In this document: in pieces, positions 11,831 to 54,787 of the stretch
How the letters are laid out: each line of letters starts with the position of its first letter
Numbering within the stretch: the first letter of the stretch is position 1
Source of the DNA: Obrimoposthia wandeli
Lineage: Eukaryota
Direction of reading: 5' to 3'
NCBI GenBank assembly: GCA_977020255.1
Contig: CDROCS010000983.1
Coordinates: forward strand, 186,001-250,000
DNA length: 64,000 nt
Position numbers and translations under genes: made by a program
Notes under the pieces: generated by a model
Told to the model about the DNA's origin: nothing
Seen by the model: only the letters and a program-made list of their open reading frames with translations
Databases searched by the model: none

Positions 11831-12406
11831 AATCCTGACCAATTTGTCGGCAGTTGGTATCTACTCGATCAGGTATTGTATCCAGTTTCTGAATATCTAC
11901 ATTAGCAATATGTATCACAACTTAGTATCCATCGACGTCACTGCATGTTACTCTTGATCACCACTTGAACAGTATGCAAGAGCTCATGATATTCATTGAC
12001 AACGAATGAACCTGCAGATCATCAACATGGCCAAGAAGCGCTTTTCTCAAACTTCAAAACTTACCATAATGTCGAGGCTTACGAACGGGTAGAAATACTA
12101 GTATCTTGTGGCTGAAGTCAAGTCGAGGCTGTTCGATTGGGCAGCCTACGTTAATATGGTCTCATTGGGTGCATGGGTTCCTGGTAATCAAACAATGACG
12201 TGATTCTTCGATACCTGGGCTTGTTGCAAGGATCAATCGATTCACTGGCTAAATACTATGCGAGCCTTAATCAAGTGAAGTGAAGAGACCTGGCACCTTT
12301 ATCACGATAGCAGTTACTCGGTGCCGACATTTAGACTCAGCCCCTAGCTTAACTTATCTTTTTCGAGACTCCTATCTCATTCTTCTCTTTCTTTCTCTTT
12401 CTAACA

Positions 12407-13807
12407 ATGGCAGAACCAGATGAATTCTTGGTATCGGTCAATGGAGACCCTGTTAAAGTAACGGGAATATTACCATGTACATTTATAATTGGACGTAATA
12501 CGATCACTATACCAGTTAGAATCATGAAAGAATGTCCTGAACCTACAATTTTAGGAATGGATGTATTATCACAACTTAAAGGGATAAGTATTGATTTACA
12601 AGATCCAAGATTGAAGGATAGCACATCAAACAGACAAATAAACCAAATTGATGTAATCATAGAGAATCCTATAAAAATCGGTAAAAGATCGCAATTTCTT
12701 ATTCAAGGTCACACATTATCAGAAGATAAAGGACCAGTTGTGTTCGAACCATCACGAGATTTCATAGAGAAATACGAATTACCAGTTGTGAGTACAGTAT
12801 GCCTGATCGAAAATCACAAAATACCAGTTAGACTGATGAATACAACCAACAATGACATCCTATTATACAGAGGAATGAGGTTGGGAAAGATAGCACAGAT
12901 GGAGAATCCCACCGTGTGTGCTATGAAACTCGATAAAGATACGAACGATTACGAAGAAATAGTAATCCAATCAGAAAGACTGACAACTAGAGAAAAGAAA
13001 CAATTACTTGATCTAATACATAAATTTCCGAAAGTAATTGCAAAAAATCCATATGACATAGGAGAAACACCTGTCATAAAACATACAATACCACTGACAG
13101 AAGACAAAGTAGTCAGAAGAAGACCATATCGAGTACCATTACAATTACAAGATGAAGTAAAAAGTCAGATTGAAGATATGTCTAAAACAGGAGTAATTAG
13201 ACCGAGTTTTTCGCCATTCTCAGCACCTGTGGTGTTGGTAAAAAAGAAGGATGGGAAAATGAGATTCTGTATAGATTTCAGAGAACTGAACAAGATCACA
13301 AGAAAAGATGTGTATCCATTACCTAGAATCGAAGAGATGCTCGATAAATTGGGTAATTCAGATTATTTTACGACATTGGATTTGCAGAGTGGATACTGGC
13401 AAATCGAGATAGAGGAAGAGGATAAACACAAAACAGCCTTTTCCTGCGGAGATGGATTATACGAATGCGAAAAGATGCCATTCGGACTGACAGGAGCTCC
13501 AGCAACATTTCAGCGTTGCATGAATTTTGTACTCGCATCGTGTGCAAACACGATGGTTTATATCGATGACATAATAATATTTTCGAAAACGTTCGAAGAA
13601 CATTTAAAAAATCTTGAAGTTGTATTTAAAAGACTGGAAAATGCTAAATTAAAAGTTAAACCTACAAAATGCGTATGGGCTAAAGAGCGAGTAACATTTT
13701 TAGGACATATAGTATCGAAAGAAGGCATTCGACCTGATCCGGCAAAGATCGAGAAAGTAAAAGCGCATTTAGCGCCAAAGACTGTTAAAGAGATACAGAG
13801 TTTTTAG
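12407..13807 (+). CDS. pol: Pol, N-terminal part: retropepsin C-terminal half, dUTPase-like spacer, reverse transcriptase
   Basis: SVNGDPVKVTG flap and ILGMDVL; RRRPYRVP, PFSAPVVLVKKKDGKMRFCIDFRELN, LDLQSGYWQI, MPFGL, YIDD; ends at a 1-nt frameshift in T5 (13801-13805) where QSFLGLANYYRRF is expected. Confidence 0.95.
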   Translation: MAEPDEFLVSVNGDPVKVTGILPCTFIIGRNTITIPVRIMKECPEPTILGMDVLSQLKGISIDLQDPRLKDSTSNRQINQIDVIIENPIKIGKRSQFLIQGHTLSEDKGPVVFEPSRDFIEKYELPVVSTVCLIENHKIPVRLMNTTNNDILLYRGMRLGKIAQMENPTVCAMKLDKDTNDYEEIVIQSERLTTREKKQLLDLIHKFPKVIAKNPYDIGETPVIKHTIPLTEDKVVRRRPYRVPLQLQDEVKSQIEDMSKTGVIRPSFSPFSAPVVLVKKKDGKMRFCIDFRELNKITRKDVYPLPRIEEMLDKLGNSDYFTTLDLQSGYWQIEIEEEDKHKTAFSCGDGLYECEKMPFGLTGAPATFQRCMNFVLASCANTMVYIDDIIIFSKTFEEHLKNLEVVFKRLENAKLKVKPTKCVWAKERVTFLGHIVSKEGIRPDPAKIEKVKAHLAPKTVKEIQSF

Positions 13808-13863
13808 GTCTTGCAAATTATTATAGACGATTTGTTGAACATTTTTCAGATATAGCAACACCA

Positions 13864-16800
13864 TTGAGAAAGTTGACGAGAAAAGATGAGAAGTTCATAT
13901 GGGGAGAAGAAGCCCAACAAGCGTTCGAGCATTTAAAAGAAAGATTGATAAAAGCACCAATATTAGCGTTTCCAGATATAAACCGACAATTCATACTTAT
14001 GACAGATGCAAGTAACTATGCTGTAGGAGCAGTATTGGGACAAGAGGATGACGAAGGAAGAGAACACGTCATCGCGTATGCGAGTAGAGGATTAAACAGA
14101 GCCGAAAGAGGATACTCTGTTATCGAAAAGGAATGTCTAGCCATAGTGTATTCGTGTAGACAGTACAGACACTATTTGCTAGGACAAAAAGTATTCCTGT
14201 ATACAGATCACAAACCACTACAGTTCTTATATAAACATAGAGATGAGATGAGTAGATTAAACAGATGGTTTCTAAAATTGGCCGAATTCGATCTAGAAAT
14301 CCGTTATAGAACCGGAAAGTCGAACGGCAACGCAGATTGTTTATCGAGATTGACAAATGTAGACGAGAAAGGAAACATAATTCCAGAAGAAGATGAAACC
14401 AATGACCAAAAAGGAGAAGCAAATCTACTGACGATTTTGCTAAAGACGGGTAAAATAGACAAAGAGATCATCAAAGAACAGAAAGAAGACGAAGAACTGA
14501 GTCTAATCAAAGAATTGTTGGTGAAAGGAGATCTAAACGATGAAATGACGAAAAAATACTCGATAAAAGAAGGAATCTTGTATATTGTCAATAATGTCGG
14601 AAAGATAGTAGTAGTAATTCCGAAGTCATTGAAACCAGCAGTGATGATCCAGTATCACGACGGAACACTAGGAGGACATCTGTCAGGGCGAAAGACAATA
14701 GCCAGAATCAAAGAGAAGTACCATTGGGATGGTATGGAAGACGACATAAAACAATGGTGTAAACAATGTAAAGTATGTTTAACCAGAAAAGACACCGGAA
14801 CTCGTACTAAAGTTCCGTTGAAACCAATGCCAGTTCCTTTGGCACCAATGGAATTCACAGCGATGGATATATTGGGACCATTGAGAGAATCAAGTAAAGG
14901 AAACAAGTATGTCATAGTATTTACGGATTACATGACGAGATGGGTAGAAGCATATCCCATGCAGAACCAGAAAGCTGAAACAATAGCGCAAATCTTAGTA
15001 GAAGAGATAATATTTCGATACGGAGTGCCTAGAAAGTTGTTAACGGATCAAGGTAAGAACTTCACTGGAGAAGTCATAAAAGCAGTATCGAAGATATTCG
15101 GAATCATGAAGTTACAAACTTCACCATATCACCCACAGACAGATGGTCTGGTAGAAAGGTTTAATAAAACTTTATGTATGATGGTACAATCCTATTGCTC
15201 AGATAAGCAAGAGGATTGGGATAAATATTTACCTTCATGTTTATATGCTTACAGGAATTCAGTTCGAGAGGCGACAGGTCACACACCATTCTATCTGATG
15301 TATCTCAGACAGAACAATATGCCAATGGATCTGGAATGGACCGAGCCAACATCTCAGTACCTAGAAACTGAACAATACATTGTCGTCATGAAGGAAAGGT
15401 TACAAGATGCTTGGACCAAAGCCGGATTGAAGTTGAAATTCAATCAAGAAGGTTACAAGGAACAATACGACAAAAAAGCAAAACCGCATGAATTTAGAGT
15501 CGGAGATCAAGTGATGATATTTTATCCAGTCATCGAACCAGGTCTATCGTTTAAACTTCATAGACCATACAAAGGACCATACAAGGTGATCCAGACAACC
15601 TCAACAAATTTGAAAGTAATCAACGAAGAGAATCGGAACAAGGAACCGATGATTGTACATGCAAATCGATGCAAATTAGTACCAAATAAAGATAATGCGT
15701 CACGATATGAGTTAAGATCACAGAAATCGAAATCGAATACCAATACCATTAAACTTACACGAATGGTAAGTGATCGGAACTACATAAACACGATGACGAG
15801 TGGTAGCGAGGAAAAACCAGCGAGAATTGGTATGCTCAGAATGAAGTACCAAGAGGAAAAGGAAGTAATCCGACACATCGCACCACAAGAGATATTAGAA
15901 GAAGACGAAGAGATAATAGTTGTTTTCGAAAAAACACAACCAACAGATGTGGCGAAAGAAGTCATTGTGAAAGATGCACTGACAAACGAATTTCTATGCG
16001 AACTTAGAGTGTCATACTACGACGGAAATACATTAGTCGCATCACTATATCAAAATTCCAATGTGTTTACGACTGAGAAAGTGATAATCGAAATCACATT
16101 GACACCAAACATAGTTGCATGGCAGAACTATGACAATACTGAAGCAGGACTAGCCAGTCAGGAAGAGAAGGAACCGGCCGGTGGTCACATACTGCATGGT
16201 ACACCAAAAAGACTCAAACAAGAATACCACGATGTAATAATGGTATTACGTAATTCACATGGGAAAAGAGATATCATGAGAGTCCATTTAATCGACGCTG
16301 ACACTGAAAAGATAATTTGTCAGATGGACACCAAATACTTTGATGGAAAGACAATTGTATGTTGTATACCAGAATCTCACCGATTAGAGACAGATCAAAC
16401 GGAAGTATCTGTAAGGTTGAGCGTAATAGAAGGATTCCATTCGCCAACCCATCCGGAAGTGACTAACAATAAAATCATCAAAGCAACGGCAGAGTTACGC
16501 ATTGACAGCGGATACCGGAAGTGGGAGGCTAAAAATAAAAAGCCACAAAGAATCAATATGATCCGAGAACAAGTGACCAACTCAATCCAGCCAAAATATC
16601 ATGCTGAAATAGTATCATCCGCGCCAAGTGTAATCACATCGATAAACGACGAAATTATAATTTTACTAAAAAATCGATGGCCGTCATCAACCGAGATACG
16701 AGTAAATTTAATTAATTATGCGAAGACACCGATATCTAAGCTGAATGTTACCTATTTTGATGGATTGTCCATCATGGGTAAATTAGAAACAATTGTCATG

Positions 16801-17280
16801 TGCTATGGAGCACAGTTCCAAGTTGAGATACTTAAAGATAGTGTAATACCGTATCCGATTCACAAATACGAAGGGGAAATCAATCCAATTATTCTAACAC
16901 CTTCATTAATTTCAGTTCAGACAGACATACCAGAATACCCTTCGAGCGAGTCTAGTGAAGACAGCGAACCGGAAAGTAACGATACAGAATCAACAGAATC
17001 CGAAGATAACATAATAGAGCGATTCGGAAGAACCATGGAGATTGAATTCGCTAAAGAGAGCAGAAAAAGACAAAACATAGAATTCGTGAAACAGAATATA
17101 CAAGAAAGACGAATTAAATCTGCAGAGGAGACCGAGTCGGAAGAAGACTCAACAAAGGAACAGACATCAGAGACAAAGATGAATATCCCTCCAGCAATAC
17201 GAATGCTGAGAGGAAAGAAACTGGCAAAACTAACTAACATCGACGAACAGATAGAAGAGATTAGAAAGACTAAAACTTGA
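13864..17280 (+). CDS. pol: Pol, C-terminal part: RT connection, RNase H, integrase (HHCC, DDE, GPY/F) plus ~500-aa extension
   Basis: TDASNYAVGAVL, EKECLAI, TDHKPL; H-x6-H...C-x2-C; MDILGPL, TDQGKNF, GLVERFNKTL; YKGPYKV; frame is open from the frameshift at ~13806. Confidence 0.95.
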   Translation: MRKLTRKDEKFIWGEEAQQAFEHLKERLIKAPILAFPDINRQFILMTDASNYAVGAVLGQEDDEGREHVIAYASRGLNRAERGYSVIEKECLAIVYSCRQYRHYLLGQKVFLYTDHKPLQFLYKHRDEMSRLNRWFLKLAEFDLEIRYRTGKSNGNADCLSRLTNVDEKGNIIPEEDETNDQKGEANLLTILLKTGKIDKEIIKEQKEDEELSLIKELLVKGDLNDEMTKKYSIKEGILYIVNNVGKIVVVIPKSLKPAVMIQYHDGTLGGHLSGRKTIARIKEKYHWDGMEDDIKQWCKQCKVCLTRKDTGTRTKVPLKPMPVPLAPMEFTAMDILGPLRESSKGNKYVIVFTDYMTRWVEAYPMQNQKAETIAQILVEEIIFRYGVPRKLLTDQGKNFTGEVIKAVSKIFGIMKLQTSPYHPQTDGLVERFNKTLCMMVQSYCSDKQEDWDKYLPSCLYAYRNSVREATGHTPFYLMYLRQNNMPMDLEWTEPTSQYLETEQYIVVMKERLQDAWTKAGLKLKFNQEGYKEQYDKKAKPHEFRVGDQVMIFYPVIEPGLSFKLHRPYKGPYKVIQTTSTNLKVINEENRNKEPMIVHANRCKLVPNKDNASRYELRSQKSKSNTNTIKLTRMVSDRNYINTMTSGSEEKPARIGMLRMKYQEEKEVIRHIAPQEILEEDEEIIVVFEKTQPTDVAKEVIVKDALTNEFLCELRVSYYDGNTLVASLYQNSNVFTTEKVIIEITLTPNIVAWQNYDNTEAGLASQEEKEPAGGHILHGTPKRLKQEYHDVIMVLRNSHGKRDIMRVHLIDADTEKIICQMDTKYFDGKTIVCCIPESHRLETDQTEVSVRLSVIEGFHSPTHPEVTNNKIIKATAELRIDSGYRKWEAKNKKPQRINMIREQVTNSIQPKYHAEIVSSAPSVITSINDEIIILLKNRWPSSTEIRVNLINYAKTPISKLNVTYFDGLSIMGKLETIVMCYGAQFQVEILKDSVIPYPIHKYEGEINPIILTPSLISVQTDIPEYPSSESSEDSEPESNDTESTESEDNIIERFGRTMEIEFAKESRKRQNIEFVKQNIQERRIKSAEETESEEDSTKEQTSETKMNIPPAIRMLRGKKLAKLTNIDEQIEEIRKTKT

Positions 17281-17293
17281 AGAGTCAGAATTA

Positions 17294-17791
17294 ATGCCAC
17301 AAATGAGTGAGATCATTCCAGGTAAGTTGTACCTCGGAAATGTGGAGGATGCAACAGATGAAAAGAAACTGTTGGAACAAGGGATAACATATGTGATCAA
17401 CGTTACAATGAATCACAAATCGCAATATCAGACGATCAGAGCTATGACATTAAGAGTAAAAGACTCAATGGATGCTAATCTTCTCGAATGGTTCGTAGAA
17501 ACAAACGAAATACTTCACAGAGAACTCCGAAACCAAGGAAAAGTGTTGGTACATTGCCAGAAAGGAATTTCTCGATCAGCAACTCTAGTATTAGCATATC
17601 TAATAAAGACTAGACGAATGCAGGTACTAGAAGCGCTAAAATACCTACAGGAGAGAAGAAGTATTGCAAACCCAAATCTTAATTTTTGGGACAGTTGGCA
17701 AATTACCAACTTCTGTTGCAAGAACAAAGACGGATGGACGACATTCCTGAGGATCCAAAGGAAAAGAATTTCCTCCAAGCATTATCACTGA
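17294..17791 (+). CDS. Dual-specificity protein phosphatase domain (catalytically intact motif), frameshifted into the next ORF
   Basis: SEIIPGKLYLG, VINVT, general-acid D in VKDSMDANL, HCQKGISRSAT (HCx5R), AYLI, NPNLNF; adding 1 T at 17683-17687 gives NFLGQLANYQ continuing into 17686-20133. Confidence 0.9.
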   Translation: MPQMSEIIPGKLYLGNVEDATDEKKLLEQGITYVINVTMNHKSQYQTIRAMTLRVKDSMDANLLEWFVETNEILHRELRNQGKVLVHCQKGISRSATLVLAYLIKTRRMQVLEALKYLQERRSIANPNLNFWDSWQITNFCCKNKDGWTTFLRIQRKRISSKHYH

Positions 17792-20133
17792 CTGGGTTAT
17801 TTTTAGCCGGAGTCGATAAAATTACACAGATAATGCCAAAAGTATTTTTATGTCATCCAGGAGATATAGATACTGCTGGATTAAAGTTCCATAGTATCAA
17901 CCGAGTAATCAACATTGTTGAAGTCGGAAACGAAATAATTAGTCTGTGTCAAAATACTGAAGATGACACCACTCGATACATACATGCTTCCAATCGAGAG
18001 ATAAACGATGCACAACAACATCTGACGAAATTGACTCAAACCATCCAAGCTGAAGTCACAGAAGGAAACGGCGTTCTGATATATCAGAAAAAAGGTACAA
18101 TGTTAGCGCCTACCATAGGTGTATCCTTGTTGGTAGAGTACCATGGTCACACGCCAGAAGAAGCAATGGTCTACATCAAACAGAATAGACCGAATACGGA
18201 ATTCAAACCGTTACTCGTTCGAGAAATAGAGAAATACACCGAAAAGAGGAAACAACAACGAGAAACAAATGAAGCTACAACAACAGTGCCCAGCTTTCAA
18301 TACCAAAGATTGCTAGCGATAGGCTTGTTAAGTTGTTTAATGCCGATAACGGGAGCACAGGAGATAGGCTCCAACCACGGAAATAGTTCCTGGTTCAACG
18401 AAATCCACAATTACACCATAAAGTACCATACACCGGCACTGATGATGTTATTAGTGTTGTTAGAACTAATTGATGTATGGATCATCCGAAAATGTCTTCG
18501 ATCTATGAGAACCGACAGTAAAAGATTTCAGTTTGTAAAGATGAAAAGACCAAATGGACCAACAAACAAAGTGCTTGTGTATCTAGACGAAAGGATCGAG
18601 GACAACATAGTAAATGAAGCGATATTTTACCCACAAAACAGAATACTGAATCAATTTCGAATAGATTACGAAGCTGACCGACAGCGCACACTTGACCAAA
18701 TATCAACAACATTCGCTGGATGCAAGCAGAAGAAAACGAGTTGTAAAGGAAATACAAAAGATGCTGATACAAAAGGACCAACGTATATATTCGATGGCGA
18801 TGTCATCAAAACACGTGAGTATGGAAGTAAAAGAGTGATAATTGAAACAATGGAAGGACATAAAACATGCTTGTCCGCCAAAAATGGATTCGGAAAGTTG
18901 ACGATACAAGGTAAACCAGTACAGTTGATTATCGGACGAGATGGAATCGAGGAAATGTCAAAACAACGACAGACAACAAAACGAACCAATCAGAAACAGA
19001 TATCTCTCAAACGATTGATAATTAAAACCCTTTGCAAAAGGTCAGTCAAGGCCCTGTGCACCGTTGCACAAGGATTGATTTATGGAGTAGTAATTGGATT
19101 GGTACTGCAAGCCATGCCAACCAGTAAAGCCGAATTGATGACACTATCCGAATATAATTTACATTTGAGAAATCTAGACAACACCCTAGAAATAATCAAG
19201 ACATCCCACAGTAGAGCCGTGATGATCATGTGTGTAAAAGGATGTCCAGGACGAATGTGTATAGTCCCAGCGACCGAAATGATAACACTTAATGGACATT
19301 ATGGAGTTAGTGTTGTCACATGTGAAGACTACATATTTGGACAAACTAAAATAGTGCTTCTCAGTGACATGTCCAACCAAAGTGCACACAAATTTAAAAT
19401 ATTAACCATCAAGAGTAAAGGAATACCAGCAGTACGTTACGGTATTCTAGAATTGGTTAATCCAATACTCGCACTGATCATTGGATTTATAATATTAATA
19501 TTACTCATCTTGTTTTGTTGTTCAAAGATAGAGTCGAGATCAAAAAAGAAACGTCATGATCTCGCAAGACGAACAGGTCAAATGAACTTACAAAAATTCA
19601 ACACAATTATACCAAGACCACCATTTTTAGATGAACCAGCACCAGAGTACCAGCCAACGATATACGAACACATCGAGGAAAGACCGTACTATATGAGTAA
19701 TTTGACTTGTTTCATTGAAGTTCCTGAGTTTAGGAATCGAACGATCATAGGAATCATGCTGATCGTACAAATCACCACTACCAAGGCTAGTTATGAGATC
19801 ATGATCAGTAAATGGAGACAAGACGTAATACGGGCAATATACATAGAAATTCCCCTACTAAAAACAAATCACGTAGTAGACATTCATCTACAGACGTCAG
19901 CAACTGACAATATCGATCAGAAATTGTATGTCATTCGACAGGTCAGAATAAAAATCGACCAAGATACACCCGTTTACAATTTAATATTATTGCATCATGA
20001 AAGAGTGTTATACCTACGGATAACAATATCAAAGAGGAAGCGGATTATCCAAAGTATCCGAACAAAGTCATTAATATTACCTAGAGATGAGCGCATCTGG
20101 AAAAATTGTCGACAGGATTATGATCACAGGTAG
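17686..20133 (+). CDS. Accessory polyprotein: pseudo-DSP domain followed by signal-peptide/ectodomain/TM modules
   Basis: 17821-18237 aligns by eye with the DSP (ITQIMPKVFL; YQKKGTML in place of HCQKGISR); hydrophobic segments at 18307-18357, 18436-18486, 19075-19131, 19465-19521, 19741-19788. Confidence 0.75.
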   Translation: MGQLANYQLLLQEQRRMDDIPEDPKEKNFLQALSLTGLFLAGVDKITQIMPKVFLCHPGDIDTAGLKFHSINRVINIVEVGNEIISLCQNTEDDTTRYIHASNREINDAQQHLTKLTQTIQAEVTEGNGVLIYQKKGTMLAPTIGVSLLVEYHGHTPEEAMVYIKQNRPNTEFKPLLVREIEKYTEKRKQQRETNEATTTVPSFQYQRLLAIGLLSCLMPITGAQEIGSNHGNSSWFNEIHNYTIKYHTPALMMLLVLLELIDVWIIRKCLRSMRTDSKRFQFVKMKRPNGPTNKVLVYLDERIEDNIVNEAIFYPQNRILNQFRIDYEADRQRTLDQISTTFAGCKQKKTSCKGNTKDADTKGPTYIFDGDVIKTREYGSKRVIIETMEGHKTCLSAKNGFGKLTIQGKPVQLIIGRDGIEEMSKQRQTTKRTNQKQISLKRLIIKTLCKRSVKALCTVAQGLIYGVVIGLVLQAMPTSKAELMTLSEYNLHLRNLDNTLEIIKTSHSRAVMIMCVKGCPGRMCIVPATEMITLNGHYGVSVVTCEDYIFGQTKIVLLSDMSNQSAHKFKILTIKSKGIPAVRYGILELVNPILALIIGFIILILLILFCCSKIESRSKKKRHDLARRTGQMNLQKFNTIIPRPPFLDEPAPEYQPTIYEHIEERPYYMSNLTCFIEVPEFRNRTIIGIMLIVQITTTKASYEIMISKWRQDVIRAIYIEIPLLKTNHVVDIHLQTSATDNIDQKLYVIRQVRIKIDQDTPVYNLILLHHERVLYLRITISKRKRIIQSIRTKSLILPRDERIWKNCRQDYDHR

Positions 20134-20596
20134 ACGACGTAAAGCCGTATGGAATTCCGTTAGGTTATTTTTCAGATTGCTAGAAACTGACAGCGTGACA
20201 GTAATGTGTCCCAACCCAGATGGCGTAATCAGATTCGAAATCCAAAGCCAAATGTTAGTACCACATTTCAACACAGAATGTCTGTGTAATCGAATTGCCA
20301 GTAATTCTACAGAGACCTCGACCATAATCATGATAATAACAGGTGAAATATTCTACATAACTCTAAGATACCAGAACCGTCGATTTCGTAGATACGGTAT
20401 AAGTATCAAACCCAGGAAAATCATTCCCAAAAGACCAAGCCTCGTCATACAGAAGGCAAAAGTAAACGAAAGTAAACGACATTCCAAGAAACCGACAGTG
20501 ATCAAAACAAAGACAGAAGCGAAAGAAAAAGAGCTAAATCCCAGAAACCAAAGTACAATTATTAAGAGGACAAGAGTGAGGGAACGATCCCACTAG
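20087..20596 (+). CDS. Probable frameshifted continuation of the accessory polyprotein
   Basis: Overlaps both neighbours; same A-rich codon style; no recognisable domain. Confidence 0.5.
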   Translation: MSASGKIVDRIMITGRRRKAVWNSVRLFFRLLETDSVTVMCPNPDGVIRFEIQSQMLVPHFNTECLCNRIASNSTETSTIIMIITGEIFYITLRYQNRRFRRYGISIKPRKIIPKRPSLVIQKAKVNESKRHSKKPTVIKTKTEAKEKELNPRNQSTIIKRTRVRERSH

Positions 20597-20973
20597 ATCC
20601 AAAACATCATTTTCAATCCAAAATAATAATACCTGTTCCACCAGAAACAAAACACCCAAATCCCCGAATTTTTAGAAAATCGGACATAATACATGGAAAC
20701 CGATCAAAACCCATGGAAATGTCATTCGAACCGACAAACAACAAAATGAAGTATGATTATAAATCATCAGACAGCGGAATAACAGCGGTCAATGCCCTAA
20801 TTGGAATGGCCGTAGTGTCAACAGCAGTGGTTTTATTGACAATCGTGTGCGTAAAAGGCAGTCAAGTATGCCCAGGAATACGACGAAAATGCGAAGGATT
20901 GCGATGCTGTGACACACCCATCATGGAGGAAGTGGAATTGCGACCCTTACCTCCGCCTCCCATCAAGATATGA
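20566..20973 (+). CDS. Terminal segment with TM helix and Cys/Pro-rich tail (ATG at 20713; frame open from 20566)
   Basis: ALIGMAVVSTAVVLLTIVCV (20794-20853) followed by CPGIRRKCEGLRCC and LPPPP. Confidence 0.6.
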   Translation, partial: EDKSEGTIPLDPKHHFQSKIIIPVPPETKHPNPRIFRKSDIIHGNRSKPMEMSFEPTNNKMKYDYKSSDSGITAVNALIGMAVVSTAVVLLTIVCVKGSQVCPGIRRKCEGLRCCDTPIMEEVELRPLPPPPIKI

Positions 20974-21096: not shown

Positions 21097-21396
21097 ATGG
21101 CCGAAGAATGCCCAATATGTTTAGAAGATCTAACCGAACGAAGAACAAGACCCGAAACCTGCAACCATTTACACCACGAGGAATGTTTATCGACATGGAT
21201 CAGAACTTATGGACAGTTCGGACACCCAACATACCCTCGTTGCCCTATATGCAGAAGACAATTCGCAAGATTCGTCATGTTAGAACCCAACCAAAGGGAT
21301 GTATATGTACAGGTGGTATTCTGCTGGAAGAATTTCGGAGAGTGTTGGTGTTATTACTGTTTGTCAGATCGACAAAATCAGACCATTTTTGTGTAA
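21097..21396 (+). CDS. RING-H2 protein 1 (putative E3 ubiquitin ligase)
   Basis: CPIC...CNHLHHEEC-LSTW...CPICR = C3H2C3; extra C-x6-CWC-x2-C motif. Confidence 0.9.
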   Translation: MAEECPICLEDLTERRTRPETCNHLHHEECLSTWIRTYGQFGHPTYPRCPICRRQFARFVMLEPNQRDVYVQVVFCWKNFGECWCYYCLSDRQNQTIFV

Positions 21397-21456
21397 AGAT
21401 CACACAACCACCAGTCCTCAATCGAGCCCAAATTCAACATCAACCCTCCCACAGTA

Positions 21457-21762
21457 ATGTCTGGAGAATGTTCCATCTGCTACGAGAGCATCGTGGACTT
21501 CTACACCAAGCCCAACAACTGCGACCACCTTTTCCACGTCGAATGCCTCGAGACGTGGATCCCCATCGCAAACAGCAACAACCCTCTCGACTTCCCAACC
21601 TGCCCGATGTGCAGAGCGACCTTCTCAGTACACTACGTGTACAACCAAGACAGCCTCCAAGCAGTGGTACCCATCGTACACTGCTGGAAAACCATCTGCG
21701 ATTGCTGGTGCTCGTTCTGCGTGGAGGAGCGAAGCACAGGCCAGCCCAATCCCCAACAATAA
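21457..21762 (+). CDS. RING-H2 protein 2 (putative E3 ubiquitin ligase)
   Basis: CSIC...CDHLFHVEC-LETW...CPMCR; extra HCWKTICDCWCSFC motif, paralogous to RING 1. Confidence 0.9.
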   Translation: MSGECSICYESIVDFYTKPNNCDHLFHVECLETWIPIANSNNPLDFPTCPMCRATFSVHYVYNQDSLQAVVPIVHCWKTICDCWCSFCVEERSTGQPNPQQ

Positions 21763-22095
21763 TCGAAGGTAACTTTCTGACTTGAACGTGACATCATGAA
21801 CTACCCTGTGTATCGCATACCGCGATAAATTAGCTACCATAATTGTAATCATAATTATAGAATCTTGTGAACTGTAAATTGACCATTACCATTTTTATGT
21901 ATGATGTTTAACTGAAATTGTAATTATTATACTGAATTTCTAAAAAAGACAATTTTTATGCTTAGTGTGAATGCGTAAACATGCCTAAAATCGAAACAAA
22001 ACTCGGTAGGATTAGATAACTAAGGATTCATTTTGAAATAAAATTTAAATTAACGATGAGAACGGTGAACCCCAAATTGAAGGAGTCATTTTCTC

Positions 22096-22632
22096 ATGCA
22101 GATGTTGTGCTCCGTATGCATGGAGAAGATTTGGGCGGTATCAGCATCCCCTGTCGGCTGCCGTCACAAATTTCACGAGGAGTGCCTCTATTTGTGGACC
22201 AAGGTTCGAACCTCCGGACAAATCACCTGTCCACTGTGCCGGACACCCTTCGCCAAATGGACACTCCAGAGCCGCGGAAGACACAAAGGCACCCGATCGC
22301 CTGCCAGCTGCATTGGTGGCATCCATTGCCAATGCTACGTGTGTCTCGCACGCCGGCGCGACACACAACTGGGCGTCCGCGAGAGATGGCGGTCTAGTCG
22401 AGACTGCCACTCGTGGTTCCAGGCCAGACGGCACTGGATTGAAAGCCATAACATGAACGGGCAGCAGTTCGACCTATTCATCGACAGCCCGCATTTGACC
22501 CGGAGCCAGCAACTCCATTTGTACAACGGGGACAGTCCGTCCTTTCCCGACCTTCCCCTGGAGCAGGTTCTACGCTACCTGACCAGTCGGAACCAGCCGA
22601 CAATAACAATTGACCTGACACATGAAAACTGA
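22096..22632 (+). CDS. RING-H2 protein 3 with C-terminal SIM-like motif
   Basis: CSVC...CRHKFHEEC-LYLW...CPLCR; CIGGIHCQCYVC; ends ITIDLTHEN. Confidence 0.85.
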   Translation: MQMLCSVCMEKIWAVSASPVGCRHKFHEECLYLWTKVRTSGQITCPLCRTPFAKWTLQSRGRHKGTRSPASCIGGIHCQCYVCLARRRDTQLGVRERWRSSRDCHSWFQARRHWIESHNMNGQQFDLFIDSPHLTRSQQLHLYNGDSPSFPDLPLEQVLRYLTSRNQPTITIDLTHEN

Positions 22633-23362
22633 CACTGTCCTCCCTTCTTTCCTTCCTAATCTGTAATTTTGTGTGTAAATTTTTAGTTGTGTATAAATAA
22701 TAGTGTATGGTTTGAGACTTGCTCCAAATTATATATTATGTTTCCCACTGGAAAACCGAGATTTTGAAAAAATTTTTTTGGGCATGTTTGTTGAAGTTGA
22801 ATGATTGATTTTGTAGGGATGAACCTAAAATCAACAGCCAAGGGCTTATTTAAGTAAAATCGATACGTTCCGGGGACGTAACTTTTTTGGAACCCCCGAG
22901 GTATGTTAAGGTTGAGAATTAAGAAAATTAAATATTTTAGTTGATTAAATACTAAAATAAAAATCCTTGAAAGCAAGGTCGAAAATTAAATTAAAATATT
23001 AATTTGAGTTTTAGAAGTAAAATTAGTGAAATATTAGGGTAAAATTAGGAGGACCACGAAGGTCGTGTATTATGCGAAAATATATAAAAGTTTAAAGTTA
23101 ATTAACAAAAGGGACAAAAATAAGAATTTAATTAAAAGAAAAACGGTTAATTAAAACCGTCAATCAAGAAAGAAAAAGGTAAGCACATTTTCGTGCAGTA
23201 AAATCAATTTAATTCTTTTCAGCTGTCGTTGACTGACAGGAAGAATTGAGATAGCCTCTGCTCCAGCAAATAACCGTCAATCAAGGAAAAAGTGAGCGCA
23301 TTTTGTGCAGTCAATAATTTTTAAATTTATTTCAGCTGTCGTTGACTGACAGGGATAGAAGC

Positions 23363-23370
23363 TATAAAAG
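23363..23370 (+). promoter_or_regulatory. TATA box in LTR U3
   Basis: TATAAAAG followed ~25-35 nt later by TCA-containing initiator-like sequence. Confidence 0.55.
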
Positions 23371-23436
23371 GCAGAGGATTTGGACACCAATTCACAATCA
23401 CAAATTCAGAATCACTCCCTGACTACAGGTTGAGCG

Positions 23437-23633
23437 GAATAGACTCAATCCGAAAATAACGAATAGACTCAATCCGAAAATAACGAATAGACTCAATCCG
23501 AAAATAACGAATAGACTCAATCCGAAAATAACGAATAGACTCAATCCGAAAATAACGAATAGACTCAATCCGAAAATAACGAATAGACTCAATCCGAAAA
23601 TAACGAATAGACTCAATCCGAAAATAACGAATA
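23437..23633. repeat. 24-bp tandem repeat GAATAGACTCAATCCGAAAATAAC x8 (perfect)
   Basis: Eight identical units counted from 23437 to 23628 plus a partial. Confidence 0.95.
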
Positions 23634-23764
23634 AAATATATCCGAATAGCCGCGATCCAACATATTAGGAGAAGACGATCTCACGAGCGCTCCATACGGA
23701 ACTGCGTCGGACAGCTCACCCGTACCGGAATCAGCGAGTCACTGGTAAGAACACAGACTAGGTT

Positions 23765-24202
23765 CATTCATTGCCCCTAGTAGGCAATTAGGATATATTC
23801 ATTACCCCTAGTTGGTAATTCTATATTTTCTTAATAATACACAAATTCATTGCCCCTAGCTGGTAATTAGGATCACTGCCTCTTTACCACAATCATTGCC
23901 CCTAGTTGGTAATTAGGATCGGACCTTTATTCATTGTCCCCAGCGACAATTAGGAAACCTACCAGACGTTTTTTCCCGTAAGATTCATTGTCCCTAGCTG
24001 ACAATTAGGTTCATTCATTGCCCCTAGTTGGTAATTCGGATAAATATTCATTGTCCCTAGTAGACAATTCGGTAAGACTCATTGTCCACTAGCTGACAAT
24101 TCGGTTCGTTCATTGTCCGTAGTTGACAATTAGGAGTAAGTTTTTATTGTCATCTTGACAATTAGGTTTTTAGGAGATCCCTTGTCTACAGTAGACAATT
24201 TG
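23765..24202 (+). repeat. Array of 12 hairpin-forming repeats (ATTGYC-N5-8-GRYAAT) with variable spacers
   Basis: Copies at 23770, 23801, 23849, 23895, 23933, 23987, 24017, 24050, 24081, 24112, 24146, 24181. Confidence 0.9.
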
Positions 24203-24471
24203 GGTCAAACACACACAGAGAGAGTAAGGAACAAAGAAACATTTAGCTAGAGATAAGAAGTAGGAGCGAAGAAATTTAAGAGAGTTGCGTTATAGATTAA
24301 CCAACCTGAGTAAGAAGACTAAACCTAAGAAACTTAATCACCTGAACGTAAAATCGATACGTGGTTCATCCCCACTTCTTGTAGAGACTCACAGAAGTCC
24401 TTTAGGAATTTTATCATACTTTTTAGAAATACGTACATAAACGTATTGTGGTGTTAGTTACGTGAATTTTG

Positions 24472-24477
24472 AATAAA
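24472..24477 (+). terminator. Polyadenylation signal in LTR
   Basis: AATAAA followed by conserved ATTTCCTACATTAG; same arrangement at 28316 and 34569. Confidence 0.65.
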
Positions 24478-25429
24478 CAATTTCCTACATTAGAACAAGT
24501 TGTTTTTACACCCTTCAGACTAAGAGACATCAATCAAATACCTTCAGATAGTACAAGAGATTAGGCAACCATAACACTAAGTAGGCCACGACCAACTTTA
24601 AGACCTGCTTCTAATCGAACTCACGTTGGGGCCCTCCGCACACTAAGAGGCTCTATACCAAGTTTCGTATAGAAACCCCAACAATTTTATGACAAAATTA
24701 TATGAAATTCTTTATTATTTTCTTTAAACTAAAAGAAATATTTAAATTAAATTAATATAGATTTAGTCAATTTTACTGAAATATGTAAAGATTTTCAGTT
24801 TTTATTATTTATTTAGATTGTTGAATTAGTGTTTAATTATATTCTTTCATTTGTTTGATCTAAAATAGGGAGAATTTGACAATTGATGTACTACAAAATT
24901 GTGTTTACATTAAATATACATATATATATATATATATTGAACTATGGCATTTAAACAGTCCTCTCTTTTTTACTTAAGAGATAAATCTGAGATAATATTT
25001 TGATTTTATGTTTTCAATTTGTCATGTGATTTCAGTTAATCAAATTGAAAAGCTAAAATGGCTCCAACTGATCAATGTATTTTTATCGTTCCTCAATAAC
25101 TGTAAATATTACGTCGATAATTTTGTACAAAGAGTATGGATGTTTAAATTGCCTGTGACCTGTCAATTGATAAAACTCTACGTCCACTTACAAAATGAAG
25201 CGTACATGGCCTTCCTAAATCAGGTAGAACACAAATTTGTGATGAAAAGAAAGTTTAATACGATCTTTCTTTGTGTAAAATTCTAGTACATTAATAATAA
25301 AAACTTTCCATGAGCTACAAATCCCATATTACGGAATTAAATTACACGAAAGCGAGCTGGGTTAAAAGATTGCCGAATCAAATTGGTTCATGGACCAAAA
25401 GAAGATGAACATCTTGATGTGAAACGTAT

Positions 25430-26606: not shown

Positions 26607-28730
26607 AAAATTTATTGACTTTCATTATGAGAATATTAATCCATTCTGGAAATTACAATATGTGAAATTACAACACCTGATCATTTCTAATAAGTTGTAG
26701 TGTTTGAGTTCCTATTACGTTTTAAAATCATTTATTATATCTATAAACAAAAATTTATTGACTTTCATTATGAGAATATCAATCTGTTAGGATTAGGATT
26801 CTAATAATTAATGAAAATAATTAATTATTATATAGTGGAATAAATCCTTGAAAGCAAGGTTAAAAATAATATAAAATTGAATTGGAATTTTAAAAAAAAT
26901 GAAATAAAAAGGTATTTTAGGACCTTGAGGAGGTCAAGTGTTTGGTGCGTGATATATAATGGATTTTATAAATTTCAAAGTGCCCAAAAAGGATTTAGCA
27001 AGAAAAACCAAAGCAATTAAGAAAATAAGATTAATTAGGAAAGGCACTAAAGAAAGAAGAATTAAGTGCTACAAGAAGTAGGACATTGCAGCAAATAAAA
27101 TCACAGTAGCCGACTGGCTGAGAATTAGCCAGCCGGCAAGAACTTTGCAACAGTTGAGTGCTGTCTCCAGACTTTGGGAAGTGGCCAGCTGACAACAAGC
27201 GAGGTAAGAATCACTTAGTTAAGTGGCATTAATTTATTCTATTATCTAGGAGATATAACGAAGCAGAGTAGCGTAGTCGCGACACAAATTAAGTATCGTC
27301 GATAGAATCCGAGCACACCAGAGATATTCGAGCACATCCGGCAAAAGATATTTGATTATTCAGAAAAGCAACTGAAGAAAAAAGAAGGTAGAATACTGCA
27401 TACCAGACAGAATTACTTGATTATTCCCAGAAAAAACCTACTGCTATCACCGAAGCCGAGCTTTCCTATCGGGATCAAGAAACGCCAAGACTGGACAGCG
27501 GTCAGAACGGAATCGGATCAAGCCTGTCCAGCAATCGGTCGGAACGAGTCTGTTCAGCGGGCAATCAGATCTAGTCTATCTGACAATCAATCGGATCGGA
27601 CGAAAACGACACGAGGCAATTCATCTCACAAGTCGTCTCTGCGGAATCGGATTAAGAATATCCAGCGGTCAACCGGATCGAGTCTATCCAACAATCTATG
27701 CGAAGGACGGTAAGAGCAGAGTGTGAAAGTGTAAAAGTAAATTGCCCATATTTGTCTCATATTTTACCAAAGGTAAATTGGTTTGATTTGGTAGTGATAA
27801 AGATTAAAAGAAATTTTTAAAATAAGATTGAATATCAGCCCTCGTAAAAACAAGTTGAAATAATTTTAAAAGAAGTTTGTAAAATAAGATTGAATATCAG
27901 CCCTCGTAAAAACAAATTGAAATAATCTTAAAATAAGTTTTTAAAATAAGAAGTTCAATAAAGTGTTGAATTTAGAAGGTGTGTTAAAATTAAAGTTAGG
28001 ATATCAAAGAGTATAATTGTCGCGAATAAATGAACTCTACCAAAGATATCAAAGTAAATTGCCCCATATTTGTTCCATATTTGAGAGTGTTAACTCAGTA
28101 TAAAATCAAACCATATTTTTAGAGCAACCAGCTCTATAAAATCTACAACCTTAAATTACCCATATTTTTAGAGTAAAGACTCTAGTAAACAAACGACCCT
28201 CAATTAAAATCGATACGTGGACCATCCCCACTTGTGTAGAGACTTTGTGAAAAGTAACTAGGATTAGTCTTGTGGTTTTTAGAACGTGTTAGAACGTAAT
28301 TTCGTGTGTATTAGAAATAAAGATTTCCTACATTAGGCAGTGTTGTATTGAACAGAACCCTTGCAAGCAAGTAAGTGTCAACTACTCCATATACAACACC
28401 ACATTAAGGGAATTTTCCAGTACCCGTATACACAGCTCTTCACACATTTCGCAACACCTAGACATAATAAACCTTCAGATAGAAATTGAGATAGACAAGC
28501 ACAACTTAAGTAGGCTACAAACAACTACAAGCCCTGCTTCTATAGAACTCACGTTGGGGCCCTCCATCTGAGGATCTATATCTAAACTCCAAGGCAGTTT
28601 CATAGAGAAACCCCAACAAATCCATTCTGGAAATTACAATATGTGAAATTACAACACCTGATCATTTCTAATAAGTTTGTAGTGTTTGAGTTCCTATTAC
28701 GTTTTAAAATTATTTATTAAATCTATAAAC
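26607..28730. repeat. 143-bp tandem duplication whose second copy is split by solo LTR B
   Basis: TTTATTGACTTTCATTATGAGAATAT at 26611 and 26754; sequence resumes AATCCATTCTGG at 28619. Confidence 0.85.
26785..28618 (+). mobile_element. Solo LTR B (1834 bp)
   Basis: TGTTAGG...CCCCAACA with 4-bp TSD AATC (26781-26784, 28619-28622); shares ATCCTTGAAAGCAAGGT, AAAATCGATACGTGG and U5 end with LTR A. Confidence 0.9.
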
Positions 28731-32815: not shown

Positions 32816-34779
32816 TGTTAGGTTTAGGAATTAGAAAATTAAAATAATTAGTCGATTTTATACTAAAATAAAAATCCTTGAAAGCAAGGTTGAAAATTAA
32901 ATTAAATATTAATTTTAAAAATCAAAACTAAAATTATTGAAATTAAGATAAAAATTAGGAGGACCACGAAGGTCGTGTATAGTGTGGAGTATATAAGGTT
33001 AGAATTAATTACTAGTAAAGTGCAAAAGGGAACAATATAGAAATCTGCCAACGTCAGCAGAAAAAAGAAAAACTACTAACGTCAGCAGAAAGGTAACCAA
33101 TTAATAAAACATCTGTCAATTACTGATATTTAAGGAATCAGTTGAATTGACAGGCAGGCAGAAAAACCCAGTGACAATTAGGATCGGTCGAAGCAGCAAC
33201 CGGAGCAACAGGCAGGTGGTAATTTAGTGGTAGTGCTCGTTTAATTGATTTTTAGATCCCATTCCAAAGTCGACTGTGCAAATTATTTAAAAGAGACATT
33301 TAACTGGAAAACCCAACGACAATCAAAGTCGACTGTGCAAATTATTTAAAAGAGACATTTAACTGGAAAACCCAACGACTAGAAAAATCCATCGAATTAC
33401 TAAGCAGCGGATCCAGTGCCGGAGTATACCCACAGTTGCGGATAGGTGAGACGATTCGAATATTCATTGTCCCTCGTTGACAATTAGGATTGTAAATTGT
33501 CTCGAATATTCATTGTCCCTCGTTGACAATTAGGATTGTAAATTGTCTCGAATATTCATTGTCCCTCGTTGACAATTAGGATTGTAAATTGTCTCGAATA
33601 TTCATTGTCCCTCGTTGACAATTAGGATTGTAAATTGTCTCGAATATTCATTGTCCCTCGTTGACAATTAGGATTGTAAATTGTCTCGAATATTCATTGT
33701 CCCTCGTTGACAATTAGGATTGTAAATTGTCTCGAATATTCATTGTCCCTCGTTGACAATTAGGATTGTAAATTGTCTCGAATATTCATTGTCCCTCGTT
33801 GACAATTAGGATTTAATTGTCTCGCATATTCATTGTCCCTCGTTGACAATTAGGATTTAATTGTTTCGCATATTCATTGTCCCTCGTTGACAATTAGGAT
33901 TTTTGTCTCGCATATTCATTGTCCCTCGTTGACAATTAGGATTTTGTCTCGCATATTCATTGTCCCTCGTTGACAATTAGGATTTTTGTCTCGCATATTC
34001 ATTGTCCCTCGTTGACAATTAGGATTTAATTGTCTCGCATATTCATTGTCCCTCGTTGACAATTAGGATTTTTGTCTCGCATATTCATTGTCCTTCGTTG
34101 ACAATTAGGTTCACGAAATCATTGTCCATCGTTGACAATTAGGTTTTATACGAATCATTGTCCACAGTTGACAATTCGCGTTTGAATTCACAACAATAGA
34201 ATTTGCCGAGTTAAGAAAGCTTTACCCACACGATCTAAGTTAAGTTGAAGAAGTTTTAGGAGAGTTGTGTTATAAATTAACCAACCTAGAAAGAAGATTT
34301 GCATTCGCACCTTTATTGTCATAAGAATAAAGGTTTAACCTCCAAAATTCAAGCCGATAGCAAAGTTAAATTATTGAGAAATCTGTAGCGCGAGCTTATT
34401 CTCGAGTTAGAAGAATAACTCTAAAATCTCGATCACCCCGAACGTAAAATCGATACGTGGTTCATCCCCACTTGTTGTAGAGACTTACAGAAGTCTTAGG
34501 AACTTTTAATATATTTTTTAGAAAATACGTACATAAACGTATTGTTGTGTTTAGTTTCGTGAATTACCAATAAACGATTTCCTACATTAGAACAAGTTGT
34601 TTTTGCACCCTTCAGATTAAGAGACGTCAAAACAAACACCTTCAGATAAGAAAGAGAGATAGGCAACTATAACACTAAGTAGGCCACGACCAACTTTAAG
34701 ACCTGCTTCTATTCGAACTCACGTTGGGGCCCTCCACATTCAAGAGGATCTGTACAAGTTTCGTATAGAAACCCCAACA
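32816..34779 (+). mobile_element. Solo LTR C (1964 bp)
   Basis: TGTTAGG...CCCCAACA with 4-bp TSD AAAT (32812-32815, 34780-34783); ends closely similar to LTR A; 60-bp internal duplication at 33264-33380. Confidence 0.92.
33458..34175 (+). repeat. Tandem array of 17 hairpin repeats (core CATTGTCCCTCGTTGACAATT), 46-bp unit degrading to 44/42/41 bp
   Basis: Cores at 33463 then every 46 nt to 33785, shorter spacings afterwards; ATTGTC/GACAAT inverted arms. Confidence 0.95.
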
Positions 34780-53400: not shown

Positions 53401-54787
53401 ATCGGAAAGAATGTATAAAGAATGGATTTTCTTACTTTGCAAATGTTATTCACTTGAGTTTGAAGATGATATTATGAAATTACATAATAAATATGTTTAA
53501 TTTTGTATTATTTTCTGACTTCTTTCTTATTTTTTTTTATTTTAATATATAATTTATGTTATTTAAAGAAATTTTATCATAATTCTTTAGATGTGTAAGC
53601 CTAGGAAAAAAAAACATTGATCTAAGTTTTCACATAGAATAGTGTGTGTGTTAAAAACCACATTCCTTAACTGATAAGAGTGAACTTTATACTAAATTTT
53701 CACATAGAATAGTGTGTGTGATTACGTAATACATTGAGTGAGTGAACTTTCACATAGAATAATTGATTGATAGATGTGTTGGTACTTTAATATTTAAAAA
53801 TTTGTAAAATAAAACAATATTTGAAGTTTTATTGCTTGACGGATTCTCTAATAGGAAACCAACCAATCTCTTTTAGTTTATTATAAAACTACGGCATTTT
53901 AAAACTTTTTAGGACCAAGTGTACGGCTCTGTTGTGAATCATTTGCCGTTTCCTTAAGTAGCATTCTGAAATATTGTATAAGAGTGAATTTTTAAAATCT
54001 AGTTTAGATGATGAAATACTTTCTGTAATTAACATTTGAATTTTCGTATTTCAAGTATTATTCTTCAGTTCAAAGTTGCATATCTTGGCTGTTTTGATTA
54101 TTTGTCGAATCATAGTCAGATTTTAGTTGATAACACATCCAATATTTTACCCAAAATGTCATATTTAATCAAGTGTTCATCGACTTTGATACCTGATTTA
54201 ATTACCTTGAAGTTGTAAATATTCTTTGTTGAACCACAGAGAATAGCTCTAGTTGTGAATTCGTTGAGTTTTAAGCATTCTGATTTCATTCATTTGTAAC
54301 GTCTTTTCAAATACAATTAACTTTATTCAAAGTGTTTAAATAATCACAAATATCGAATTCAACATGGTAGTTGATCTCATGATTCGACAATACATCTTCT
54401 AATTTCGTTGAATTCATAGATGTTTCTTTATTACATATATAGTCAAATTGTATTAGTACGTTTTAAAATAATCGGTTAAATTCTTAGTATGTGATAATTT
54501 TCAACACGCCTCCTGCAGAAGATTCGTCCCTGAGTACAGTAATATTATTAATGAATTATATCAATAATAAAAATTATTTTCATCTTATTCAGGATACTTA
54601 GCTAACTTAGGATACTTAGCTATATTACCGATTTCCAAAATGCATTGAGTGATAACAATGCAACTTTCTTAAATTTAGTGTGAGATTTTCTCTACTTAAT
54701 TAAATGAAGTAAATTCTGACTTTTATCATTATTCTGAGGACAATTCTTTGTGAATGGTCAAGGCAACTTGAAGTGGATTTGACTCAC

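Follow-up and report, generated by a model that had tools for sequence, protein, structure and literature searches.

Among the closest described systems is Burro (GYPSM1), a giant planarian Ty3/gypsy element of >30 kb that encodes a GAG-ENV-POL polyprotein and carries cargo with an apoptosis and ubiquitin theme (PMC6431247); errantivirus-like Ty3/gypsy elements with GAG-ENV-POL organization have also been described in nematodes, bryozoans, and flatworms (PMC13524379). Spliced messages are the usual route of expression for ORFs at the 3′ end of LTR elements (PMC5408684), and one such case is CERV of the Caenorhabditis elegans element Cer1, an accessory protein from spliced RNA that functions in RNA export and has an essential Cys loop (PMC10309623). 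Among viruses, ICP0 is a SUMO-targeted ligase that acts against intrinsic defence (PMC3174244). Little is known of how LTR retrotransposons escape silencing sufficiently to occupy several percent of a genome, and descriptions of counter-defence proteins encoded by animal elements are few.

In the 64,000-nt stretch of Obrimoposthia wandeli DNA analysed here (the window), three RING-H2 ORFs (RING1, RING2, and RING3) make up an accessory cassette at the 3′ end of a ~23-kb Ty3/gypsy element, of which it is a fixed part (Table 1). The window copy is cut at position 12403, from which siblings match onward, and its polyprotein is split into several frames. Six siblings that were fetched whole all presented two LTRs and spanned 22.6 kb to somewhat over 23.5 kb; these copies are young, as their LTR pairs differ by 0–19 mismatches over 0.9–2.1 kb aligned. 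The element presents the protease-RT-RNase H-integrase order of Ty3/gypsy, with Gag upstream. Its LTRs end in TG..CA, six of six siblings have a primer-like site beginning with TGG behind the 5′ LTR, and the one full copy for which both flanks are present has a 4-bp target-site duplication. The same type of duplication flanks each of two solo LTRs in the window (26785–28618 and 32816–34779), which belong to related subfamilies and are ~74–88% alike to the 3′ LTR in aligned parts. Pfam matches in seven sibling ORFs follow the order zinc knuckle, ubiquitin-like, Monjiviricetes fusion glycoprotein (PF24664, E = 5e-96), protease, BIR (38.8 bits, over the cut-off), C3HC4 RING, second protease, RT, RNase H, integrase, and two DSP domains; the ubiquitin-like match is weak (E = 0.048, under the cut-off), and PF24664 follows the zinc knuckle within one open frame and precedes the protease and BIR within others. 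Two sibling loci upstream of the window breakpoint (L037 and L038) encode two aspartic protease domains as well as a BIR and a C3HC4 RING (IAP-like); with this IAP-like RING in the polyprotein and three RING-H2 ORFs behind it, the family encodes four RINGs in all. The tandem DSP-fold domains are located at 17294–17791 and 17734–20133 in the window; the first keeps HCxxGxxR, and the second, without it, is a pseudo-phosphatase.

Table 1. Features of the element copy in the window.
Feature	Position	Strand	Description
Polyprotein remainder	12403..20973	+	5′-truncated, multiply broken; protease region, RT, RNase H, integrase, two DSP-fold domains, membrane segments
RING1	21097..21396	+	99-aa RING-H2 with C-x6-C-x-C-x2-C motif; ATG 1 nt behind YAG
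RING2	21457..21762	+	101-aa RING-H2, beta-hairpin, C-x6-C-x-C-x2-C motif, helix; ATG 2 nt behind YAG
Intron	21769..22101	+	333-nt GT..AG; starts 6 nt after RING2 stop, ends at RING3 ATG; exactly missing in L218 and L220
RING3	22102..22632	+	176-aa RING-H2, C-x4-H-C-x-C-x2-C motif, predicted helical tail, terminal SUMO-interaction-like motif ITIDLT (type of the window copy)
3′ LTR	22904..24683	+	TG...CA, internal tandem repeats; same ends on both sides of full-length siblings

Burro and this element have in common a giant LTR format, a high copy number, a single huge polyprotein in which an env-type fusion glycoprotein stands in frame after Gag and before Pol, and a BIR, along with a cargo theme of apoptosis and ubiquitination (PMC6431247). 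In the element, this theme is represented by the BIR, the IAP-type RING, and the phosphatase domains; its ubiquitin-like match is the sub-threshold one given above. The element is shorter (~23 kb vs. >30 kb), and the Burro cargo domains MATH, BCL2, dUTPase, and ankyrin had no Pfam match at E 0.05 in the seven sibling ORFs, Pfam being less sensitive than the HHpred searches used for Burro. Compared by description, two proteases, an IAP-type RING, and two DSP-fold domains are present only here, and a 3′ array of stand-alone RING-H2 ORFs does not feature in the sections of the Burro account that were compared (PMC6431247). The nematode, bryozoan, and flatworm elements likewise have a GAG-ENV-POL organization, a class III-type glycoprotein, and many recent copies; RING, BIR, ubiquitin, and phosphatase do not occur in the main text of that study, the supplements of which may list the present family (PMC13524379). 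Public long polyproteins with the same glycoprotein family are 36–56% identical to the element in RNase H-integrase. CERV resembles the RING proteins as an LTR-element accessory protein from a 3′ ORF and spliced RNA, with a Cys-rich loop, but it is a single 517-aa protein that functions in RNA export and is not a RING ligase (PMC10309623). The first-pass annotation had considered a tandem expansion of small stand-alone RINGs atypical of LTR retrotransposons. A literature search, with most subscription papers and Repbase outside its reach, did not turn up any LTR element described as carrying an array of stand-alone RING-H2 genes, in agreement with this; the broader theme of ubiquitin and apoptosis, on the other hand, is not foreign to these elements, because Burro carries such cargo (PMC6431247). 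What appears to be new is a spliced, selected three-ligase cassette with an unassigned four-Cys motif, on an element backbone of a known kind.

The three plus-strand ORFs translate as the first-pass annotation described, and all pass the Pfam zf-RING_2 cut-off of 27.3 bits (40.6, 36.7, and 32.6 bits for RING1, RING2, and RING3, respectively); each has His as ligands 4 and 5. RING2 and RING3 are 35% and 34% identical to RING1 in an alignment of the three ORFs, in which the eight C3H2C3 ligands, W34, the CPxCR Arg, and the further Cys residues C76, C83, C85, and C88 are invariant, as had been noted for the ligands, the Trp, and the Arg; the previously given formula for the second motif, C-x4-6-(H/x)-C-x-C-x2-C, accommodates both versions present (Table 1). 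Classification of the three RINGs as paralogs rests on their common Cys motif and tandem position. RING ligases use this Trp, and the Arg that follows the last Cys pair, to bind and activate the E2. Among intact ORFs of RING1, RING2, and RING3, respectively, the eight ligands are kept in 34/35, 38/38, and 27/28, the E2-facing Trp in 35/35, 38/38, and 27/28, the CPxCR Arg in 34/35, 38/38, and 26/28, and the second Cys motif in 34/35, 38/38, and 26/28. Because these motifs are kept across copies with diverged synonymous sites, the three ORFs are not due to chance, and they almost certainly encode real proteins. The longest RING3 reading frame covers 22096–22632 (178 aa, plus strand), but RING3 most likely starts at the second Met, at 22102 (176 aa), since diverged copies lack the first ATG and 22102 is the first base past a splice acceptor that is used. 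GC3 is 76% in RING2 and 68% in RING3, as compared to 37% in pol; we ruled this out as evidence for a foreign origin, as a host-like ORF in the window has 75%. The window also contains an intronless 295-aa ORF (54758–55645, minus strand; GC3 75%) that looks like a seven-helix receptor by eye and for which no Pfam match and no homolog were found.

Exact 30-mers of RING1, RING2, and integrase occur 3,179, 3,798, and 5,847 times in the genome, respectively (0 for reversed controls); if all ~5,800 integrase-bearing copies were ~23 kb, the family would represent up to ~10% of the assembly, which is an upper bound, as many copies are truncated. All 150 scored RING2 matches encode a protein identical to RING2, and 28 of 30 loci chosen by RING2 contain all three RINGs. 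A second sample, free of the bias of choice by RING2, consisted of 17 usable stretches behind integrase matches without an exact RING2 30-mer; three of these end before the cassette, 12 contain RING1, RING2, and RING3 in order, and two have lost parts by deletion, so that none of the 14 integrase-chosen copies reaching the 3′ part presented a different cassette. A search with an outside RING gave 30 loci, of which 27 belong to this element, mostly at 65–95% DNA identity and with the same RING order; these include one partial RING3 duplicate, two RING1-RING2 fusions by deletion, and several truncated copies. The identical order across the integrase-chosen copies and the 65–95% identical loci indicates that the RING trio is old and fixed. 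The tandem expansion proposed in the first-pass annotation, and the copy-number variation among siblings suggested there as a check, are therefore not borne out; no fourth full RING was seen, the single partial RING3 duplicate (1/27 element loci) being the nearest case. A separate arrangement was observed in contig C91 (G000:C91:190000–206000, loci L208 and L209), where three tandem units that share LTRs consist only of leader, RING cassette, and LTR, with a junction that is not GT..AG; this RING-only deletion derivative is local, with two exact junction matches genome-wide, both in C91.

All three RING ORFs are under purifying selection, as functional proteins are, which also establishes conservation among copies. 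In the integrase-chosen sample, dN/dS is 0.36 for RING1 (n = 7; per-pair Fisher p 4e-4 to 0.1), 0.13 for RING2 (n = 6; p ≤ 2e-5), and 0.18 for RING3 (n = 4; p ≤ 4e-14); against older lineages, the corresponding values are 0.57 (n = 8), 0.15 (n = 8), and 0.23 (n = 5), making RING2 the most constrained of the three (0.13–0.15). These ratios were computed on intact ORFs only, and all pairs include the window copy and are hence not independent; a RING2 dN/dS of 0 among young copies was left out as an artefact of how those copies were found. Constraint in RING1 is concentrated in the RING part (0.30 against older lineages, as compared to 1.27 for the C-terminal part; 0.22–0.32 over both samples), while its Cys-motif half is little constrained (0.51–1.27 over both samples); in the integrase-chosen sample, the Cys-motif part presented a dN/dS of 0.51 in RING1, 0.14 in RING2, and 0.12 in RING3. 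These results largely refute the idea that the RING ORFs are neutral passengers, acquired a single time from host or viral DNA and then multiplied with the element during its burst. A huge recent copy number would by itself yield many identical copies, but dN/dS far below 1 is found between diverged subfamilies, including the integrase-chosen sample, and ligands and splice sites are kept while adjoining sequence changes; we thus regard neutral passage as hardly credible.

Two further observations concern the same region. The first 200 nt behind the RING2 stop (21769–21960, mostly intron) are 83–91% identical to older lineages and lie between ORFs with a dS of 0.5 (RING2) and >1.4 (RING3) against those lineages; this segment could be either a constrained non-coding signal or a recombination mosaic. 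In the -1 frame, a 225-aa ORF (21108–21785) is open over RING1 in 32/35 and over RING2 in 35/38 copies, and under synonymous shuffling such openness is rare over RING1 (p = 0.0055) and less so over RING2 (p = 0.13). This ORF was rejected as a gene, since 26 of 46 shared changes in RING2 are synonymous for RING2 and non-synonymous for it, as compared to seven of 46 for the reverse; its ATG arises from Glu-Cys codons, and we judge it a by-product, yet one that is unusually stop-free over RING1.

A search for RING3 starts with other upstream sequence identified three matches, two of which (L218 and L220) lack exactly 21769–22101; the third, considered as a junction, was a local variant. Only AG is common to both intron ends at the L218/L220 junction. 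Both loci are otherwise long elements, 94% alike before the junction and 75% alike after it (300 nt), and their intron losses are probably separate events, recombination of one junction being possible. The best explanation for a precise 333-nt loss in retroelement copies is reverse transcription of spliced RNA; element RNA is therefore made, and the donor behind RING2 and the acceptor at RING3 are used, which says nothing on translation. The GTAA donor behind RING2 is kept in 38/38 intact RING2 copies, and the acceptor AG is kept in 35/35, 38/38, and 28/28 copies of RING1, RING2, and RING3, respectively, a result that is informative mainly for RING3, where the upstream sequence has diverged. 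A YAG ends 1, 2, and 0 nt before the RING1, RING2, and RING3 ATGs, respectively, against a background of 5–10%, a pattern noticed post hoc. As the RING ORFs are located behind a polyprotein of an estimated ~5,000 codons, they need messages of their own; each RING protein may be translated from its own subgenomic message, generated by alternative splicing or by leader trans-splicing to the AG before each ATG. The genome was likewise searched for copies spliced at the RING1 and RING2 acceptors, and no match was a junction (0 matches in one search, five of five matches examined in another, and 20 of 25 matches examined in the last). The five candidates were one deletion with 6-nt microhomology, not GT..AG, and four copies with the normal spacer, and the 20 examined in the last search were point variants. 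No RING splice joint was present among 15 of 21 joints listed, from four runs that represent contigs of one sample.

Once the intron is removed, the three RING ORFs share a reading frame that is interrupted by single TAA codons, RING3 starting 6 nt behind the RING2 stop, and the RING1-RING2 spacing is constant at 360 nt in all 30 loci with both ORFs intact. This arrangement would be compatible with one multi-RING protein or a coupled polycistron, produced by read-through or stop-restart. We consider this very unlikely, as two in-frame junctions arise by chance in one of nine cases, shared spacer changes are mostly non-synonymous in that frame (5/6), and each ATG has its own YAG; TAA is, in addition, generally the least leaky stop codon. 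Separate messages thus remain our preferred reading. Short intron-like sequences were also observed elsewhere: the 3′ LTR contains two 44-nt units (23179–23222 and 23292–23335; GTRAG..TTTCAG), the strict pattern of which is absent from 13 other stretches tested, and the ~42-nt introns of one host gene array end in TTTCAG, a nematode-like form. A search for SL1 gave no match, and neither did its control. Host tandem ubiquitin-like exons with 270-nt spacing and ~42-nt introns are found at many loci in the genome, including C2592, C1456, and C2050 (L192, L194, and L196).

The AlphaFold2 model of RING2 (36 rows; pLDDT 78.5) contains a RING and a hairpin (residues 58–74), followed by a C-terminal Cys loop and a helix (residues 86–94) modelled at lower confidence (62–69). 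Over residues 1–68, it matched RING and U-box chains in a wide search (Z 6.5–7.6); a Foldseek search of the PDB gave no match at E 0.001, and its top row hints weakly at a Hakai-like dimer (E = 0.03, rmsd 9.9). Seven matches at E ≤ 0.001 were obtained from a viral library, led by baculovirus PE38, IE2, and CG30 (2e-4 to 7e-4) and an alphaherpesvirus RING ligase, with the ICP0 family at 9e-4 to 4e-3; this likeness is mostly that of a generic RING core (15–41% identity among the matches listed, TM-score ≤ 0.59). Atlas neighbours are small RING proteins, nine of the 10 listed rows being viral. RING3 was modelled poorly (pLDDT 57), a structure search with its helical-tail model gave only Z < 5, and the tail had no usable Atlas match. 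Sequence searches found no relative covering both RING and Cys motif outside this genome: a word-sharing search outside the element gave no candidate relative of RING2, a profile search for outside homologs gave generic RING matches only, and a CxCxxC motif behind the RING was present in none of 150 representatives and, among 105 viral and metagenome loci examined, in none of the 102 that have a RING.

The resemblance to RINGs of DNA viruses that the first-pass annotation emphasized therefore holds for the Atlas look-alikes and the best viral-library folds, but a weak, quickly built tree of 89 rows and 65 columns, in which most forks are open, places the element RINGs in a group with a PHRF1-like RING of the host and proteins similar to it (SH-aLRT 94). 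RINGs of viral contigs fall outside this group, and the three are not recovered as one clade. The host gene in question (L049), which we take to be a PHRF1-like RING-PHD gene (PHRF1/SCAF11-like), has the P-x2-C-x-H spacing of the element RINGs and matches them by profile over the RING (probability 80%, E = 1e-5). It differs in that its fifth ligand is Cys and in having CPxDR as well as a PHD finger, where the element RINGs are H2 with CPxCR, a four-Cys motif, and no PHD; the succession of RING-HC, CPxDR, and PHD that defines PHRF1-like proteins is thus not found in the element RINGs. The viral ligases ICP0, IE2, PE38, and CG30 share with the RING2 model a RING followed by a beta-hairpin, and type A of RING3 adds a SIM-like tail, as in SUMO-targeted ligases. 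These viral proteins, however, are mostly 200–580 aa, while the element RINGs are 99–176 aa, RING-H2 with a second Cys motif, and 15–28% identical to the baculovirus and herpesvirus rows; herpesvirus ICP0 and the baculovirus RING ligases are C3HC4. The likeness is at most one of role, not of membership.

At least one of the three RINGs is very probably an active ligase. Each protein would act as a small E3 ligase, in which the RING would recruit E2~ubiquitin of the host and the substrate would be chosen by the tail together with the C-terminal Cys motif; this motif probably forms a third zinc site and may be a zinc-bound substrate or dimer module. The likeliest substrates would be host proteins that silence or kill element-expressing cells, and the three paralogs may differ in substrate. 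On balance, we favour this reading as a whole, in which the element encodes E3 ligases that are expressed from spliced RNA and act on host defence proteins. An alternative that is less probable, although it deserves consideration, is that the RINGs are functional ligases or zinc-binding adaptors for the element's own cycle, involved in Gag/Env ubiquitination for particle release, polyprotein turnover, or export of unspliced RNA in the manner of CERV. The element does encode an envelope-type fusion glycoprotein (PF24664), Cer1 provides a precedent in CERV, which is made from spliced RNA, requires its Cys loop, and has a role in RNA export (PMC10309623), and selection by itself cannot separate self from host targets; three divergent paralogs and several RING3 tail types would nevertheless fit several or moving host targets better, and the searches described above found no relative with RING plus CxCxxC outside this genome, even though related GAG-ENV-POL polyproteins are widespread.

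It is quite unlikely that the RINGs are decoys or a selfish poison/antidote device, which would block E2s, SUMO, or host RING partners, or in which one protein would harm cells in the absence of another, with no productive substrate ubiquitination. Tiny stand-alone RINGs leave little room for a substrate arm, the trio is retained together, and the second DSP-fold domain of the element, without its catalytic Cys motif, suggests that decoy domains may occur in this family. The CPxCR Arg, however, is kept in nearly all intact ORFs (counts above), and this residue of RING ligases serves catalysis, beyond binding.

Within the favoured reading of ligases directed at host defence, RING3 provides a more specific lead. 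RING3 occurs in several tail types, and the 175–176-aa type ends in TIDLT; this tail is present in 15/23 young, 4/5 older, and 1/4 integrase-chosen intact RING3 copies, is absent from the shorter types, and is kept across lineages with saturated synonymous sites. The word I/V-D-L-T/S occurs 0 times in 5,329 residues of sibling polyprotein. A SIM combines a hydrophobic core of four residues with a flank that is acidic or phosphorylatable. SIMs are loose motifs, and RNF4 uses four of them, as compared to the single one in RING3 (PMC12751080). The IDLT type of RING3 is thus a putative SUMO-targeted ligase, a lead that rests on one loose, polymorphic motif, and it may act in a manner similar to ICP0. 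In C. elegans, SUMO promotes Argonaute-directed silencing (PMC8131101). A bolder scenario, which we regard as rather improbable, is that the envelope-bearing retrotransposon has become a "complex" endogenous virus with a spliced, immediate-early-like cassette of three E3 ligases, one of which, a SUMO-targeted ligase, would destroy SUMO-dependent silencing machinery by convergence with ICP0. The whole kit would then account for the rise of the family to thousands of copies and for the inflated genome, and a zinc module linked to RINGs and new in kind would be present in the four-Cys motif. The cassette brings retrotransposons a step closer to DNA viruses, which direct RING ligases at intrinsic immunity, and it represents spliced accessory-gene expression in a Burro-like element. 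It also offers three small, intact, selected candidate ligases suited to single expression and assay, with natural RING3 variants with and without the SIM-like tail as a built-in control.

Elsewhere in the window, a 270-aa acidic ORF (41862–42674, minus strand) without a Pfam match is located inside inverted repeats (40725–40799 and 43196–43270) and contains two YIDL(L/T)SQDS motifs, which are presumably SIM-like. Parts of this ORF recur in other loci, and it may possibly belong to a second mobile element with SUMO-binding-like motifs.
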